Positions 12,811-51,898 of a stretch of 54,205 bases of DNA are shown piece by piece (the stretch's first letter is position 1; each line of letters opens with the position of its first letter). The notes under the pieces were generated by a model. That model was not told the DNA's origin, ran no database searches, and saw only the letters and a program-made list of their open reading frames with translations. The stretch is from Ilumatobacteraceae bacterium (lineage in GTDB: Bacteria > Actinomycetota > Acidimicrobiia > Acidimicrobiales > Ilumatobacteraceae). The position numbers were made by a program, and so were the translations under genes. The stretch is from positions 1 to 54,205 of the forward strand of contig JBDQKN010000001.1 of NCBI GenBank assembly GCA_040263235.1, written 5' to 3'.

Positions 12811-14649
12811 CTACTGGCCAGCCTGCCGACGGGTGTTGCGAATTCGTTCCTGGGGGTCGAGGAACACCTTTCGCAGCCGCACGGACTTCGGCGTCACTTC
12901 AACGCATTCGTCAGAGGCGATGAACTCGAGGGCCTGCTCCAGGGAAAGTTGTCGGGGTGGCGTCAGCTTCACCGTTTCGTCCGAGGATGATGCTCGCATG
13001 TTCGTCAACTTCTTTTCACGACAGATGTTGACGTCCATGTCATCAGCTCGAGAGTTCTCGCCGACGATCATCCCGCAGTACACCTCGGAACCGGGCGGCA
13101 ACATCATGGTGCAGCGTTCCTGGAGGTTGACCATGGCGTATGTGGTGGCGGGTCCGCTTCGGTCCGCGATGATCGAACCACGTTCACGGGGCCGGATCTC
13201 ACCCGCCCACGGCTCCTAGCCCTCAAAGACATGGGTGATCACTCCTGTGCCCCGCGTCTCGGTGAGGAACTCCGTCCGAAAGCCAATGAGTCCACGGGCG
13301 GGCACGAGGTAATCGAGTCGGACCCAGCCGAGTCCATGATTCGCCATGTTCTCCATGCGTCCACGACGAACCGCCAGAAGCTGCGTGACGGTGCCGAGGT
13401 GCTCCTCGGGAACGTCAACCGTCACCCGTTCAACCGGCTCGTGCCGACGGCCGTCGATCTCCCGGGTAACGACCTCTGGCTTCCCCACCGTCAACTCGAA
13501 GCCCTCTCGGCGCATCGTCTCGACGAGAACTGCGAGTTGCAGTTCTCCTCGAGCGAGCACCTCCCAGGTGTCAGGTCGATCGGTGTTGCGGACTCGCAGC
13601 GACACGTTGCCCACCAATTCTGCGTCGAGGCGATTCCTGACGAGTCGCGCAGTGAGACGGTTGCCTTCGCGACCGGCGAGCGGTGATGTGTTAATCCCGA
13701 TTGTCATCGAGAGCGCAGGCTCATCCACGACGATCACTGGCAGAGGACGAGGGTCGTCGATGTCAGCGAGGGTGTCACCAATGGTCACTTCCTCAAGTCC
13801 CGCAACCGCCACGAGGTCACCAGCACGGGCGCTCTGAACCGGATTCCGCACCAAGTGCTCGGTGAGGAGAAGTTCGGTCACCTTTGCCCGGGTCACACTT
13901 CCGTCTGCCCGGCACCACGCGATCTGTTGTCCGCGCGAAATCTCGCCCGAGACCACACGGCACAGCGCAAGACGTCCGAGATAGGCGTTCGAGTCGAGGT
14001 TTGTCACCCAAGCCTGCAGGGGCATCGAAGGGTCGTAAGACGGCGCTGGCACCGTCTGGAGGATCGTCTCAAAGAGCGGAGACAAGTCCTCTCCGGTGGT
14101 GTCAGCATCAAGGGACGCCCAGCCGTCACGACCTGAGCAGTACAGGATCGGAAACTCAACCTGCGAGTCGTCGGCATCGAGGTCGATGAACAGCTCGTAG
14201 ACCTCGTCGATGACCTCTGAGACACGAGCGTCCGGCCGATCGACCTTGTTGACCACCAAAATCACTGGAAGATGACGGCTGAGGGCCTTGCGAAGGACGA
14301 ACCTGGTCTGAGGCAGTGGCCCCTCAGCGGCGTCGACGAGAAGCACAATTCCGTCAACCATGGTCAATGCCCGTTCAACTTCTCCACCGAAATCTGCGTG
14401 GCCGGGAGTGTCGACGATGTTGAGACGTACACCGTCGCGCATCAACGACGTGTTCTTTGCGAGGATCGTGATCCCCTTCTCACGCTCGAGATCCATCGAG
14501 TCCATGACCCTCTCGGTCACTGCCTCATGAGCACTGAACGCGCCGCTCTGTCGGAGCATGGCATCGACCAGTGTGGTCTTTCCGTGATCGACGTGAGCGA
14601 CGATCGCTAGGTTGCGGATGTCGGAACGTCGGGTGAGGGTCTCAGGCAC
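12811..14649 (-). pseudogene. typA: translational GTPase TypA/BipA interrupted by one in-frame TAG (13216..13218)
   Basis: ORFs 13216..14649 (477 aa; [34 protein letters not shown]) and 12811..13134 are in the same frame. Hand translation across the gap gives ...[44 protein letters not shown]... Actinobacterial TypA has FDGYEPW here, so the TAG replaces a conserved Tyr codon. Total length is 613 codons, the normal BipA size. Confidence 0.85.
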
Positions 14650-45296: not shown

Positions 45297-46415
45297 TTAG
45301 GCGCTAACGCTGACCAGTTCCCGGGAGGCCTCGTTCAGGCGGACCGGCCCGTCAGGCGTGGCCACAACAATGTCTTCGAGACGCATCCCCCATCGACCCG
45401 GGATGTAGATGCCTGGTTCGACGCTGTACGCGTGTCCAGCCACAAGAGGCACCGTTGAGCCCTCGACCATGTACGGGTCCTCGTGCTCCTCCATACCAAT
45501 GCCATGGCCGGTGCGATGGACGAAATAGTCGCCGAATCCATCATTGACAAGCACCGACCTCGCTGCCCGATCAACCTCAGAACACAGGGCGCCCACAACA
45601 CCAGCTCTCACGCCGGCCTCCTGCGCCCGTTGAAGCGATTCCCAGGCGGCGGCGAGATCGGAATCCACCGTTCCGGTCACTACACACCGGGTGATGTCCG
45701 AGCAGTAGCCGTCCATCGTGCCCCCGAAATCGCATAACACGATCTCATTCGGCTCGATTACCCGACTCCCCGGATGATGGTGAGGACTTGCAGCATTTGG
45801 ACCCGCAGCCACAATCGCGAAATTCACCCGTGAATGTCCTTCAGCCACGATCAAGGAGGACAGTTCGGCAGAGACCTCGGCCTCGGTGCGCCCGATGAGC
45901 GGGATCGCCCCCGACTGCAGGCGGTAGGCGATGCGGTCGACTGCCTGGGCGGCCGCCCGAAGGGCATCGATCTCCGCCGGTCCTTTCACCATCCGTGCAG
46001 GCCCAACCACTTCAGTCGATCGGCGCCATTCCACGCCCGGGAGTCGCTGGACAAGGCCGACGAGGAATCGAGACCACATCTGATCTCCGACCGCGATCCG
46101 CCCTGCCCCAACACATTCATCTGCAACTAGATCAAGCGGCTCGACGGTTTCGCCCCAGGGCACGATCTCAAATATCTCAGCGTGGGGCGTTACACGCGGT
46201 GCTTCCAACTCAGGCACGAACAGCCGAAGTGGTCCCGACATCGGAACGACCAGCATGGTGAGTCGTTCAAGCGGCATCGCTTCGTAGCCCACCAGGTACG
46301 GAAGGTCACGGCCCACTGATACGAGGAGAAGATCGATTGAGTTGCTCGCCATGCACTCACGCACTGCGTTGATACGCCGTTGGTACTCCGCTTCGAGGGC
46401 CATGGACATAGTCAA
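45297..46415 (-). CDS. M24 family metallopeptidase (Xaa-Pro aminopeptidase/dipeptidase)
   Basis: CDFGG...DGYCSDITR, HRTGHGIGMEEHE and SVEPGIY...G.RLED are pita-bread-fold metal ligand motifs. Confidence 0.85.
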   Translation of the reverse strand: MTMSMALEAEYQRRINAVRECMASNSIDLLLVSVGRDLPYLVGYEAMPLERLTMLVVPMSGPLRLFVPELEAPRVTPHAEIFEIVPWGETVEPLDLVADECVGAGRIAVGDQMWSRFLVGLVQRLPGVEWRRSTEVVGPARMVKGPAEIDALRAAAQAVDRIAYRLQSGAIPLIGRTEAEVSAELSSLIVAEGHSRVNFAIVAAGPNAASPHHHPGSRVIEPNEIVLCDFGGTMDGYCSDITRCVVTGTVDSDLAAAWESLQRAQEAGVRAGVVGALCSEVDRAARSVLVNDGFGDYFVHRTGHGIGMEEHEDPYMVEGSTVPLVAGHAYSVEPGIYIPGRWGMRLEDIVVATPDGPVRLNEASRELVSVSA

Positions 46416-48079
46416 GCAGTCGGCACGTGCTTCTGCTGCCGCCTGCTGAGGTGAACCGCCACCGACTCGAAAGCAGACGACGCGTGATGGCTTGAGCGAG
46501 TCAACGGGGAGGCCTCCACATGCGCGATGCCAAGTTGAGTACCAATCTCCGCCCAGCGCTCAAAGTGCTCAGGCTCAACCCAGCGAGCAACAGGCAAGTG
46601 GTGGCTCGTCGGCCTCAGATACTGGCCAATCGTGACGATGTTGCACCCCACCGAGGCGAGATCGGCCAAGGCCCCCTCCACTTCGGCATCTGTCTCACCC
46701 ATTCCCACGATGATTCCTGATTTTGTCACCACTGCCCTAGCGGCAGAACGGGCAAGCAATGCAAGGCTTCGTGCGTAGCCGGCAGATGGCCGAGCGGCTC
46801 GTTGGAGCCGCGCGACTGTCTCAAGATTGTGGTTGAGGACATCGGGTCGTGCATCGAGAAGGACATTGAGTGATGTTTCGTCACCACGAACGTCTGAGAT
46901 GAGCGTCTCGATGGTGACCGAGGGTGTGAGCGATCGAATCTCGGAGACACAGTCGGCCATATGCGACATACCTCCGTCGGGGAGATCGTCGCGAGCAACC
47001 ATGGTCAACACGGCGTGATTGAGGTTCATCCTCCTTACGGCCTCGGCCACGCGCTGTGGTTCGTCGGGGTTCGGTGGAAGTGGCCGACTCGTGTCGACCA
47101 AGCAGAATCCGCAGGCCCGGGTGCAGCGATCGCCAAGAACCATGAGTGTCGCCGTCCCCTCAGACCAACACTCGCTGAGGTTCGGACAACCAGCGTCCTC
47201 GCACACGGTCACGAGATCGAGTTCACGGACGGTGCGTCGAACTTCGAGTACCTCAGCGCTGTGTCGGACGACGGATCGCAACCACTCTGGCTTGCGGTCC
47301 TCGAGAGCTACCGCCGAGCCAATACCTGCAGCCTGCGCTCGCATCGACAATCGGACTGGCTCGCCGGGGCCATCACCACGCGAAAACGGACTGAGGTCCT
47401 CTGGCGTAACACGCCAGTGGACATCTTGTCGCTCCATCTGTGATCCCCATTGAATTCCAGCAACCTCAGCAACCACATCGACCACCTCGTGGAGCGATAC
47501 GTCAATTCCTTCCTCGGCGAGTGAGGTCACTGGGCGGTCCGAGATTCCGCAGGCAACGATGTGTCTACGCATGTAGGCCATATCGGGAGAAATATTGAGG
47601 GAGAAGCCATGAAGGCTTCTCCCCTGCGCTAGCCGCACCCCAATTGCGGCGATCTTTCGGGGATTTTCAGTGTCGACCCCAAGCCACACTCCTGGGTACC
47701 CGTCAAGGCGGCCTGGACCATGCGCCCCGAGTCGGCCTAGAACCTCGATAAGCACCTGCTCAACTGCTCGAACATGCTCGATCGATGCTTTGCCGTTTGG
47801 AAGGCTCAGGATTGGATAGCCCACCAGCTGTCCGGGGCCGTGGTAGGTGATGTCCCCTCCGCGATCTACCTCAATCAGTGTGGCGTCGACCTCGGAAGGA
47901 TCGCACCGCAGATTTGTGGCGAGATCTGCATGACGGCCATAGGTGAACACATGATCGTGCTCAAGGAGCAGAAGGTGGTTCCCTCGGCCATGACGATGGA
48001 TGCCACGCTGAAGCGCCAACGCCTCGATATACGGCACGCGACCCAGCCATCGGACCCTCAATGGGGTCTCGACGCTCAC
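46412..48079 (-). CDS. lipB-lipA: fused octanoyltransferase LipB / lipoyl synthase LipA
   Basis: Single uninterrupted ORF 46412..48163. The N-terminal half has LLLLEHDHVFTYGR, DRGGDITYHGPGQLVGYPI and RKIAAIGVR...HGFSLN (LipB). The C-terminal half has RKPEWLR, TVCEDAGCPNLSECW, CTRACGFCLV (radical-SAM CxxxCxxC), NHNLETV and TIGQYLRP (LipA). The preferred start is GTG 48079, 5 nt after the E2 stop and preceded by GGAGAG. The largest possible start is TTG 48163. Confidence 0.85.
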   Translation of the reverse strand: MSVETPLRVRWLGRVPYIEALALQRGIHRHGRGNHLLLLEHDHVFTYGRHADLATNLRCDPSEVDATLIEVDRGGDITYHGPGQLVGYPILSLPNGKASIEHVRAVEQVLIEVLGRLGAHGPGRLDGYPGVWLGVDTENPRKIAAIGVRLAQGRSLHGFSLNISPDMAYMRRHIVACGISDRPVTSLAEEGIDVSLHEVVDVVAEVAGIQWGSQMERQDVHWRVTPEDLSPFSRGDGPGEPVRLSMRAQAAGIGSAVALEDRKPEWLRSVVRHSAEVLEVRRTVRELDLVTVCEDAGCPNLSECWSEGTATLMVLGDRCTRACGFCLVDTSRPLPPNPDEPQRVAEAVRRMNLNHAVLTMVARDDLPDGGMSHMADCVSEIRSLTPSVTIETLISDVRGDETSLNVLLDARPDVLNHNLETVARLQRAARPSAGYARSLALLARSAARAVVTKSGIIVGMGETDAEVEGALADLASVGCNIVTIGQYLRPTSHHLPVARWVEPEHFERWAEIGTQLGIAHVEASPLTRSSHHASSAFESVAVHLSRRQQKHVPTA

Positions 48080-48083
48080 TGGC

Positions 48084-49400
48084 TCAGAGCTCTCCTGACC
48101 AGTCACGGTGTTCGAGAATCTCCTTGACACGTACCAAGAAGCCTGCTGCATACGCTCCGTCAAAAGCCCGGTGATCCCAGCTCATAGCCAGATTGCCCAC
48201 TGGGTGTACCACGATCGCCTCAGTCCCATCAGCCATCCGCGCCACCACCGGTCGTCGAACCACGGCGTCGGTCGAGATGATCGCAACCTGAGGTTGGTTG
48301 ATGATCGGCATGGTGAGAACAGACCCGGCCGAGCCGTTATTCGAGATGGTGAAGGTTCCACCTTGGATCTCGTCGGGAGCGAGTCGTCTGGCCCGTGCAC
48401 GATCGGCCAAGTCTCGGATCTCGTGGGCTATCGCTCGAAGTCGCTTTGTTTCGGCGCTTCGGATAACCGGTGCGAGTAGCCCGTCGTGGTCGAGGTCCAC
48501 CGCGATACCGAGGTCGACATAACCGTGAATCACTAAATCATCGCCGACCACGCTGGCGTTCATGTGAGGGAACTCTCCCAACGCATCAACGATGGCCCGG
48601 GCGACGAAGGGCAGATATGTCAGGGAGAACCCCTCTTGACTTCGGAATTCCGCCTTCACCACCGACCGAGCAACATCCACGTTCGCAAAGTCGATCTCAA
48701 CCACGCTGAAGGCATGAGGTGACGTCGCCTTGCTCGCAATCATGTGAGAGCCGGTCACCTTGCGAATCTTCGAGAGCGCAACGACAGTCTCACGCTCGCC
48801 TGTTGGAACAGGCGCTGGCGCTGGCGCAGGCGCAGAAGCCGGAGCAGGAGCAGGAGCCGGCGCAGGAGCCGGCGCAGGAGCAGGAGCAGAGACAGGAGTG
48901 GGCGCTGCAGCAACCGAGCGGCCATCGATGTGATCGAGAACATCCTCTCGGGTGATACGACCGCCAGCACCCGTAGCGCGGATGGCAGACGGATCGAGAC
49001 CGTGTTCGTTGACAAGTCGGCGTACAACCGGCGACAGCAAACGCCCATCATTGGTTACAGGAGTAACGCCGCCAGCAGCAGTCACGGGCGGAGGAGCCGG
49101 AGCCGGAGCAGGAGCCGGAGCAGGAGCAGGAGCCGGAGCAGGAGCCGGAGCAGCGGTGGCATCCGATGCCTCACCAACTACCGCCACTACCGTTCCAACA
49201 TCGATGGTGTCACCCTCAGGAACCCGAATCTCTGTCACCACACCGGCGATTGGACTCGGAACCTCGGTGTCAACCTTGTCGGTCGACACCTCGAAGAGCG
49301 GCTCGTCCGCAGCAACCGTGTCGCCCACGTTCTTGAACCATTGAGTGATCGTGCCCTCGGTAACGGTCTCGCCGAGTTGGGGAAGCGTCACATCTGCCAT
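48084..49400 (-). CDS. sucB: dihydrolipoamide acyltransferase (E2) of a 2-oxoacid dehydrogenase complex
   Basis: Lipoyl domain ([14 protein letters not shown]), two Pro-Ala linkers, a PSBD ([14 protein letters not shown]) and a catalytic domain with SWDHRAFDG. Confidence 0.9.
   Translation of the reverse strand: [438 protein letters not shown]
48805..48905 (-). repeat. imperfect GCN-CCN hexanucleotide tandem repeat encoding E2 Pro-Ala linker 2
   Basis: Plus strand reads ggcgctggcgctggcgcaggcgcagaagccggagcaggagcaggagccggcgcaggagcc... It encodes [29 protein letters not shown]. Confidence 0.8.
49088..49156 (-). repeat. imperfect hexanucleotide tandem repeat (ggagcc/ggagca) encoding E2 Pro-Ala linker 1
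   Basis: ggagccggagccggagcaggagccggagcaggagcaggagccggagcaggagccggagca encodes [24 protein letters not shown]. Confidence 0.8.
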
Positions 49401-50837: not shown

Positions 50838-51251
50838 TCAGTCGACTGGCAATACCCAGCGCCTCACTTGTTCGCCTCTCTTCACCGCAAGGACGTGAGA
50901 ATCTGCACCGAGGTCGGCGAACACCACCTCACAACGACGACCCGAAACGGTGACTGGATCGCAGTCACCGTCGAGGACAGGCTGAGCCTCACCAGCTGCA
51001 AGCAGCGTCATCCCATCGGTGGCAAGGGCATCGTCCACTCCCCCTAATTCGAGCCCAACTCGGATTTCCCCGGCGCCACGAAGCGCCGTGAGCACCGTCA
51101 CCGAGAGATCCCCTACCACGACAGCATCGCCTATCGCAGCAACCGGAGAGACCTCTTGATCACCGCGCACCTGCCAGAGAAGCCCGATCCCGGCCCCAGC
51201 GATCGCGAGAGCACACGCCAGCGACAAAAGGAGTAGCGTTCTCGTCTTCAC
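50838..51251 (-). CDS. hypothetical secreted/membrane-anchored protein
   Basis: MKTRTLLLLSLACALAIAGAG is an N-terminal signal/anchor. 137 aa; no family recognised. First gene of the lpd-E2-lipBA strand. Confidence 0.5.
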   Translation of the reverse strand: MKTRTLLLLSLACALAIAGAGIGLLWQVRGDQEVSPVAAIGDAVVVGDLSVTVLTALRGAGEIRVGLELGGVDDALATDGMTLLAAGEAQPVLDGDCDPVTVSGRRCEVVFADLGADSHVLAVKRGEQVRRWVLPVD

Positions 51252-51292: not shown

Positions 51293-51898
51293 TTGCCCAC
51301 TACGGTTCGTCATGTGCTTCGGAACGCCGTCGGCCAGATATTTGCGCTTTCAGTAGTGCTGACCGCCTGCGGTACCGACTTGCCTGACGAGATCAGCACA
51401 TCGGTCGAGACAATCCCAACAACATCAGAGCCCGCCTCATTGGATCTGACGGACTCCTCGGCCGTTCCCGCTCCGTCGGTAGCACAAGCGACTGCACCTG
51501 ACAGCCCCCAAGCCCTTCGTTGGACGGCGCCCCTCATCGGCGGCGGCCAGATTGATATGGAGGAGTTCGCTGGCAAGCAGGTGCTGCTGTGGTTCTGGGC
51601 TCCATATTGAACGACCTGTATGCGAGAAGCCCCCTCGGTCGAGGAGGCATGGTTGAGTGCCCCGCCCGGGACAGTCGTGGTTGGAGTTGGCTGGTCTGGC
51701 GACTCCGCGATCTATCAGGATTTCATTGACGATGGTGGACTGACGTTCCCGCAGATTGATGACACCTCCGGAGAGGTCTACTCCCGATTCGAAATCCCTT
51801 ACCAGCCTGCAGCGGTGCTCATCTCGGTTGGAGGAGATGTGACCACGATCAGAGGCGCCCTCGACAGGGCGACGCTTGCGGATTTGCTCAATTCCTGA
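51293..51898 (+). CDS. TlpA/ResA-like thioredoxin-fold thiol:disulfide oxidoreductase lipoprotein, with in-frame TGA (51608..51610) read as selenocysteine (UxxC)
   Basis: ORFs 51293..51610 and 51620..51898 share a frame and are separated only by the TGA. Joined translation: ...GKQVLLWFWAPY-U-TTCMREAPSVEEAWLSAPPGTVVVGVGWSGD...FEIPYQPAAVLIS... This matches the FWA-x-WC-x-x-C...E-x-P...P(cis-Pro) layout of TlpA/ResA/DsbE, with the TGA at the first Cys. Lipoprotein signal ALSVVLTAC. A SECIS-like hairpin lies downstream. The start is TTG 51293 or GTG 51314. Confidence 0.65.
51629..51648 (+). promoter_or_regulatory. candidate bacterial SECIS hairpin
   Basis: GCCCCCTC (51629..51636), GGTC loop (51637..51640), GAGGAGGC (51641..51648): 7 base pairs plus one C.A mismatch. 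The loop starts 29 nt after the U of the UGA. The GGUC apical loop is what I recall for the E. coli fdhF SECIS. Confidence 0.5.

Follow-up and report, generated by a model that had tools for sequence, protein, structure and literature searches.

Selenoproteins of the UxxC type, with selenocysteine (Sec, U) in a thioredoxin-fold domain matching PF00578, are established predicted families and are among the commonest selenoproteins of metagenomes (PMC1088965; PMC2398784; PMC1794560). They are named "Prx-like protein", "Prx-like 1" or "Prx-like thiol:disulfide oxidoreductase" (PMC1088965; PMC1794560; PMC2398784; PMC9312934; PMC13188914), and Prx-like sequences numbered 22 in the data from the Sargasso Sea and 225 in those from GOS (PMC1088965; PMC1794560; PMC2398784); the same lists hold other predicted Sec-containing proteins of the Dsb type, namely DsbA-like and DsbG-like proteins and a thiol:disulfide interchange protein. 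In this work we analysed a gene interrupted by a single TGA codon, at 51293..51898 of a 54,205-nucleotide (nt) stretch of an Ilumatobacteraceae contig (JBDQKN010000001.1), hereafter the window; coordinates are positions in the window, and L001 to L138 are labels for related loci or contigs. An initial annotation had taken this split gene for a UxxC selenoprotein with its own selenocysteine insertion sequence (SECIS) hairpin, a proposal that is supported here by the conservation of the TGA, by orthologues with cysteine in its place and by a hairpin that covaries. We conclude that the gene very probably encodes one lipid-anchored, extracytoplasmic thiol:disulfide oxidoreductase of the DsbE/DsbF (MPT53) type, in which the nucleophilic Cys of the CxxC motif is replaced by Sec (U106-T-T-C109).

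The gene falls within the Prx-like class as defined by PF00578 and a UxxC motif (PMC9312934), as PF00578 is its best Pfam match and its motif is U-T-T-C. It shares with the Prx-like family of Zhang, Gladyshev and co-workers this domain, a nucleophilic Sec in UxxC, the existence of Cys homologues, a hairpin immediately downstream of the UGA whose apical loop contains G, and abundance in aquatic metagenomes. The class is defined by domain and motif only (its reference member, WP_010940744.1, is from Geobacter), and the likeness is one of definition, not of sequence alignment. The passages that those papers devote to the family do not describe a lipoprotein signal, a relationship to DsbE/DsbF, an actinobacterial setting or a conserved neighbourhood, and our literature search found no paper linking selenocysteine with DsbE, DsbF or MPT53. 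What is new here is the architecture of a lipoprotein, the setting in actinobacteria, the conservation of the neighbourhood and a covariation-supported SECIS with a GGUC loop. These are descriptive additions and do not amount to a new kind of system. The initial annotation was right that thioredoxin-like selenoproteins are known from metagenomes, but it overstated the case in calling an exported actinobacterial version unusual, because UxxC selenoproteins of the Prx-like and thioredoxin-like kinds have long been known and because metagenomes from marine, freshwater and soil habitats are rich in members of the present family (at least 120 contigs).

Structure of the gene and of its read-through product

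Two adjacent open reading frames (ORFs), 51293..51610 (TTG start, 105 amino acids, aa) and 51620..51898 (92 aa), share one frame of the forward strand, in which TGA 51608-51610 is the sole internal stop; the ORFs and their translation thus confirm the arrangement first described. Gene callers also behave as had been predicted, since in all database records examined they split the gene into two hypothetical proteins (105 aa plus 92 or 81 aa). The TTG start is the gene-finder call on L136, and an alternative GTG start a few codons downstream is also possible. The read-through product, ...VVLTAC(26)GTD...LLWFWAPY-U(106)-TTC(109)MREAPSVEE...YQPAAVLIS..., consists of a lipoprotein signal, a linker rich in Ser, Thr, Pro and Ala, and a thioredoxin-fold domain with the motif LLWFWAPY-U-TTC-MREAPSVEE. 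Its features are as follows.

51293..51898, forward strand: predicted selenoprotein gene, complete; 201 codons, TTG start, in-frame UGA at codon 106, TGA stop at 51896-51898.
51293..51370, forward strand: predicted lipoprotein signal peptide; n-region with R/H/R positive residues, hydrophobic core AVGQIFALSVVL, lipobox L-T-A-C, Cys26 at 51368-51370.
51371..51511, forward strand: low-complexity linker rich in Ser, Thr, Pro and Ala, between the lipid anchor and the catalytic domain, as seen in the translation.
51608..51610, forward strand: UGA, very probably read as selenocysteine (U106), at the nucleophilic position of U-x-x-C; aligned to the first Cys of DsbF CPTC, of MPT53 CPFC and of Cys-form orthologues.
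51617..51619, forward strand: TGT, Cys109, the resolving Cys of UxxC; aligns with the second Cys of CxxC in PDB homologues.
51629..51648, forward strand: predicted SECIS hairpin, within the coding sequence; stem 51629-51636 with 51641-51648, loop GGUC 51637-51640, C.A mismatch 51632/51645.

A lipobox after a hydrophobic stretch was found by a crude pattern in at least 92 of 117 family members, and most of the others show one by eye. The exported lipoprotein signal VVLTAC that had been pointed out in this gene is thus a property of the family, and with its lipobox LTAC and hydrophobic core it predicts an extracytoplasmic protein, probably processed at Cys26. The linker varies in length and sequence across the family, and the domain match begins at about residue 68-74.

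Nearest characterised relatives

With U written as C, the product scores above the gathering thresholds of three Pfam families (AhpC-TSA, 37.9 versus 26; Redoxin, 32.6 versus 26.6; Thioredoxin, 28.9 versus 23.5). Its best PDB matches are two Mycobacterium tuberculosis proteins, DsbF (Rv1677, 3ios) and DsbE/MPT53 (Rv2878c, 1lu4), both with an E-value of 8e-20 over residues 68-194, whereas ResA (5e-10) and TlpA (2.5e-4) are more distant. The motifs LWFWAPWC-PTC of DsbF and LWFWTPWC-PFC of MPT53 align residue for residue with that of the window protein, and they place the TGA on the first, nucleophilic Cys, as the initial annotation had claimed from the motif; in the Cys-form orthologues L006 and L131-L135, too, U106 corresponds to the first Cys of CxxC. 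The product has the mark of the TlpA/ResA/DsbE superfamily, a thioredoxin-like domain in which W-C/U-x-x-C stands at the N-terminal end of helix 1, and the nearest sequence relationship across the whole catalytic domain is to the mycobacterial DsbE/DsbF (MPT53) type. The proposed TlpA/ResA-like identity therefore holds for the superfamily and not for TlpA or ResA proper.

DsbF and MPT53 are, like the predicted product, exported actinobacterial thioredoxin-fold proteins, and LWFWAPWC-PTC-xxEAP aligns with it. They differ in having Cys instead of Sec and no SECIS; in addition, in the window protein Tyr replaces the Trp that precedes the active site, and U-T-T-C replaces C-P-x-C. ResA of Bacillus subtilis and TlpA of Bradyrhizobium belong to the same superfamily and have the same membrane-tethered, extracytoplasmic topology, but both are cytochrome-maturation reductases and DsbE/DsbF are much closer. 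The NCBIfam ResA model NF002854 gave 54.8 bits, far under its cut-off of 170, and there is no ccdA, resB, resC or other cytochrome c maturation gene in the neighbourhood examined. A reductase of the ResA/CcmG type, acting in cytochrome c maturation, was rejected on these two grounds.

Conservation of the TGA codon

A first, word-indexed homology search with the read-through product returned only two proteins, both ending in ...LLWFWAPY, and the contigs that encode them (L001-L004) carry TAT-TGA-xxx-ACx-TGT, an identical hairpin and a common gene neighbourhood. Scanning a genome collection revealed the split gene in a metagenome-assembled genome (MAG) labelled Actinomycetota bacterium (L005), and a Cys homologue, also a lipoprotein, with the motif WFWAPYCPTC in a Microthrixaceae MAG (L006). 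An exhaustive HMMER search, for which the C-terminal 92 aa served as query, gave as nearest relatives "proteins" of 92-100 aa that start at, or one codon past, the position following U (for instance MTCAREAPSVE, VTCNAEAASVE and VICNHEAPSVE), and the full-length relatives carry CxxC (WFWAPTCSVC, WFWAPWCSVC, WFWAPGCATC). Finally, metagenome DNA was scanned with the pattern W-F-W-x-P-x-TGA-x-x-C-x-x-E-A, which yielded at least 120 contigs. All are true homologues, open for 76-130 codons or more upstream of the TGA and for about 95-100 codons downstream. In total, TGA occupies the catalytic codon in at least 128 loci, which represent 115 distinct sequences; it is kept in L001, L004, L005 and L009 (46-74% identity at the protein level) and in over 110 other distinct sequences. 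The invariance of the TG of Cys109 in the alignment of these 115 sequences is imposed by the search pattern and is not independent evidence.

Three independent metagenome assemblies of the same species (L136-L138, 99% identity) all have the TGA and an intact hairpin. The ENA assemblies ERZ24794600 and ERZ24794615 contain this species, and the MAG JAQCGT01 is of a close relative. Downstream of the TGA, the differences are synonymous in five of five cases in L136 and in L137, and in seven of eight in L138. Comparison with the nearest relatives gives a ratio of nonsynonymous to synonymous substitution rates (dN/dS) of 0.11-0.27 downstream of the TGA, with dS near saturation. The UGA thus stands on the redox-active Cys, it is conserved, and the frame is open on both sides of it and under purifying selection downstream. 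Cys orthologues with TGC or TGT at this codon (L131, L132, L133) share the gene neighbourhood and read WFWAP[WTG]C..C. Both kinds of relative that the initial annotation recommended looking for do exist: these Cys orthologues, which lack a good hairpin, and many TGA-containing homologues whose hairpin covaries. The possibility it had raised, that the TGA is a read error, is answered by the independent assemblies of the same species.

The hairpin downstream of the TGA

The hairpin, GCCCCCUC-GGUC-GAGGAGGC, is part of the minimum-free-energy fold. It has the extent (51629..51648) and the seven pairs plus one mismatch originally given, the mismatch being C.A, with a spacer of 18 nt between it and the TGA. 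The statement that GGUC is the loop of the Escherichia coli fdhF SECIS was verified on the fdhF sequence, where the UGA (codon 140) is followed by GGUUGCA-GGUC-UGCACC, with a bulged U in the stem. Both elements lie in the coding region directly after the UGA, with an identical loop, below which the stem is irregular, through the bulged U in fdhF and through a 1x1 mismatch in the window hairpin. They differ in that the loop starts 18 nt after the UGA in fdhF and 26 nt after it in the window, and the stem sequences are unrelated. A UGA-loop distance of 26 nt is within the range of bSECISearch, 16-37 nt or so.

In this window, of 60% G+C, a hairpin with at least seven of eight pairs and a 4-nt loop follows 15% of the TGA triplets, and only 4 of 1959 are followed by one whose loop is GGTC. 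It had been argued that a random nonsense mutation would hardly fall on the redox Cys and also be followed by such a hairpin; the hairpin alone does not bear this out, as it is not beyond chance, and the argument stands on comparative evidence. For the same reason the case for a selenoprotein rests on the related sequences, that is on their conserved catalytic TGA and covarying hairpin.

Over the 48 nt that follow the TGA, the 115 distinct sequences can be aligned with no gap. Columns 37-39 of the loop G36-G37-U38-C39 show more than 90% conservation, and G36 is slightly less conserved. In the stem, double substitutions that also alter amino acids produce CCUC/GAGG (S-V-E), CUGC/GCAG (A-V-A) and CGAC/GUCG (T-V-V), and AGUUC/GAACU and GGUGC/GCAUC are further variants; the hairpin of the window is identical to the variant that occurs most often in the family. 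Of the stem cells of the alignment, 75.7% are paired versus 63.7% in shuffles, double-change cells number 111 versus 36.7, and the covariation score is 0.352 versus 0.157; not one of 500 shuffles reached the observed value for any of the three measures. In slid controls, where the partners were moved by 1-3 columns, the covariation score was 0.04-0.14. The UGA is thus followed, just downstream, by a covarying stem-loop with a small G-containing apical loop. In 96 of the 115 sequences there is no pair at the fourth position of the stem, which forms a conserved 1x1 internal loop. Codon choice was compared at synonymous sites in the 56 distinct sequences that encode E-A-P-S-V-E: Ser is UCG in 56 of 56, against 31% elsewhere in the same genes, Val is GUC in 56 of 56, against 39% elsewhere, and Pro is CCC or CCU in all 56, although CCG and CCA together make up 52% elsewhere. 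In the six Cys forms examined the hairpin is degraded, with only three to five of the eight stem positions paired.

Three side observations concern hairpin variants. In the same-species strain L138, a C-to-T change at the equivalent of 51632 replaces the C.A mismatch by a U-A pair and Pro by Ser (EASSVE); at the level of the population, at least, there is no strict requirement for the internal mismatch. In the Cys form L131, the TGC is followed by a different, shifted hairpin, CCGAC-CGUCGA-GUCGG, in the place of the SECIS, perhaps left over from a recent conversion of Sec to Cys, perhaps a product of chance. Lastly, a subgroup with the motif WFWAPH-U-P-x-C-R-R-E-A-P-G-V-E-Q-F-A-R (L019, L023, L034, L039, L040, L057, L066, L083, L096, L102, L105, L106, L113, L120 and L130) has two adjacent hairpins after the UGA, CCGGG-(A/G)AGCC-CCCGG and then CGAGC-AGUU(C/U)-GCUCG, the second of which has a G-U in its loop, about 35 nt past the UGA. 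A second SECIS layout seems to occur here in a single protein family.

Alternative explanations

Several observations weigh against a functional selenoprotein, or limit what can be said of it. The fold energy of the single sequence (63 nt) is no better than that of shuffles (z -0.05). About 20 members, of the WFWAPH-U...EQFAR kind, do not form the GGUC hairpin and supply many of the unpaired cells. No Rfam family covers the hairpin, the whole window has no match at gathering scores, and a permissive scan of 51560..51720 returned only meaningless microRNA and long non-coding RNA matches; to our knowledge, bacterial SECIS elements are essentially not modelled in Rfam. The assembly contains at least one broken gene, a frameshifted TypA, so that errors do occur in it. 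Genes for Sec insertion (selA, selB, selD) and tRNA-Sec were not found in the window or in about 0.9 Mb of related loci, mostly short contigs, by tblastn with E. coli SelA, SelB and SelD and by ARAGORN. As for function, the catalytic direction (oxidase, isomerase or reductase) and the client are matters that we infer.

The absence of Sec genes would be accounted for if this were a relic, in a host that has lost the Sec machinery and in which the UGA either terminates translation or is read at a low level by a near-cognate tRNA, as Trp or Cys. In the course of evolution bacteria have indeed commonly lost the Sec trait and selenoproteins (PMC1794560). However, the absence says little, because the search covered only a 54-kb window and related loci; nor does any of the sel genes lie in a further 8.6 kb or so to the right of the window. 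Two crude scans for a second selenoprotein gene, one of the window and one of all related loci, gave only frames that look non-coding. In Actinomarinales, a related order in the class Acidimicrobiia, selA, selB, selC and selD have been reported together with about five selenoproteins per genome (bioRxiv 10.64898/2026.04.03.716425), so that among Actinomycetota from similar habitats one order at least possesses the Sec trait; the window DNA, with its 60% G+C, is not Actinomarina. A relic is also at odds with the three same-species strains, in which all but one of the five to eight differences downstream of the TGA are synonymous and the SECIS is intact, and with the low dN/dS over the longer term. 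Moreover, lineages that lose Sec normally convert the TGA to TGC or TGT, as the syntenic Cys orthologues did. We therefore consider a relic improbable, and a selenoprotein still in use remains the preferred reading.

Much less credible is that we are dealing with a pseudogene, or with a mistake of assembly or of sequencing, in which a random change of TGC or TGT to TGA struck an ordinary DsbE/DsbF-like gene ahead of a chance hairpin. The frameshifted TypA and the frequency of comparable hairpins after TGA triplets lend it something, but the TGA recurs in the three same-species assemblies, in L001, L004, L005 and L009 and in the more than 110 further sequences, the downstream frame is always open and under selection, and the hairpin covaries, so that this explanation is refuted for practical purposes. 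Equally hard to believe is that the locus makes two small proteins, a 105-aa lipoprotein and a 92-aa protein started at ATG 51620, with the hairpin serving translational coupling or attenuation: gene callers do predict both genes (the second of 92 or 81 aa) and the ATG is 9 nt after the TGA, but a thioredoxin fold would then be divided within its active-site motif, the Cys orthologues of full length are each one protein, and the C-terminal half cannot be a separate gene because the ATG is confined to the closest relatives, most members having Asn or Arg (AAC, AAT or CGN) and no start codon there. Reassignment of TGA to Trp or Gly was rejected, as TGA terminates ordinary genes of this genome (the lpdA-like gene ends with TGA 49421, and the selenoprotein gene itself with TGA 51896). 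Taken together, the conserved TGA, the two open halves, the Cys orthologues, the signs of selection and the same-species assemblies exclude sequencing error, random nonsense mutation, a split gene and code reassignment.

Proposed mechanism and significance

By analogy with the bacterial Sec pathway, SelB-GTP-Sec-tRNA(Sec) would bind the apical part of the hairpin, and the ribosome at the UGA would insert Sec with no termination. The pre-protein would then be exported unfolded, lipidated at Cys26 and cleaved (Lgt/LspA), and the flexible Ser/Thr/Pro linker would tether the enzyme to the outer face of the membrane. There the selenolate may attack disulfides or thiols of substrates and form a selenenylsulfide with Cys109, U106 and C109 cycling between the selenol/thiol and selenenylsulfide states. 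Mt-DsbE as well as Mt-DsbF assists oxidative folding in vitro (PMC3853704), and because of this activity, and because no cytochrome-maturation genes are linked to the locus, we favour a role in the formation or isomerisation of disulfides in envelope proteins, by homology with the two.

The biology of selenoproteins is unchanged by these observations, as UxxC thioredoxin-fold selenoproteins and SECIS hairpins in coding regions are well established. What they add is an exported, lipid-anchored thiol-disulfide enzyme to the selenoproteome of uncultured Actinomycetota, and a whole family, of at least 120 contigs, that is mis-annotated as split hypothetical proteins. The signature of TGA and SECIS would be an easy marker for Sec-using lineages among uncultured Actinomycetota, and the syntenic pairs of Sec and Cys orthologues are a natural experiment on why Sec is used rather than Cys in an oxidising, extracytoplasmic setting. 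Tentatively, and with more doubt than confidence, we suggest that the Sec-containing DsbE/DsbF-like lipoproteins might be a distinct, widespread and previously undescribed clade of surface-tethered selenoproteins in uncultured aquatic and soil Actinomycetota, with a SECIS of the fdhF-like GGUC type, a conserved membrane protein with two Cys as partner, and a conserved place beside lpdA-sucB-lipBA. If this were true, the use of selenocysteine, also outside the cytoplasm, would be a common and overlooked trait of abundant lineages of Actinomycetota.

Gene neighbourhood and other observations

The common neighbourhood comprises an lpdA-like gene, a small divergent gene, the selenoprotein gene, a YfcH-like epimerase gene and an amine oxidase gene; sucB and lipB-lipA are further neighbours. 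The small divergent gene is described as follows.

50838..51251, reverse strand: divergent gene whose 137-aa product has a membrane anchor at its N-terminus (KTRTLLLLS...) and, in the outward-facing part, two invariant Cys with a spacing of about 10-14 residues.

This gene adjoins the Sec forms (the window, L001, L004 and L009) as well as the Cys forms (L131, L132 and L133), and it is always divergent; its homologues lie at 9574-9987 of L001, 644-1036 of L004, 2185-2736 of L009, 775-1203 of L131, 1058-1468 of L132 and 89-517 of L133. The 137-aa protein has no Pfam or NCBIfam match. To speculate, this two-Cys membrane protein is possibly a partner, client or substrate of the selenoprotein.

Elsewhere in the window, the single selB-like match was rejected as a selB gene, since it is TypA. 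The TypA/BipA gene (12811..14649, reverse strand) is broken: ORF 13216..14649 covers positions 1-466 of the 594 of the TypA model, and the C-terminal remainder is in another frame, in ORF 12811..13134. The break falls between about 13134 and 13216, and it is either an assembly indel or a true frameshift or pseudogene.

Next to sucB and lpdA, one long ORF (46412..48163, reverse strand) encodes both LipB (octanoyl transferase, residues ~30-232) and LipA (lipoyl synthase, residues ~290-568), and L001 and L136 also have this fusion among their gene calls (LplA-B_cat plus Radical_SAM). The start given for the window ORF overlaps the end of sucB, and translation probably begins further downstream.

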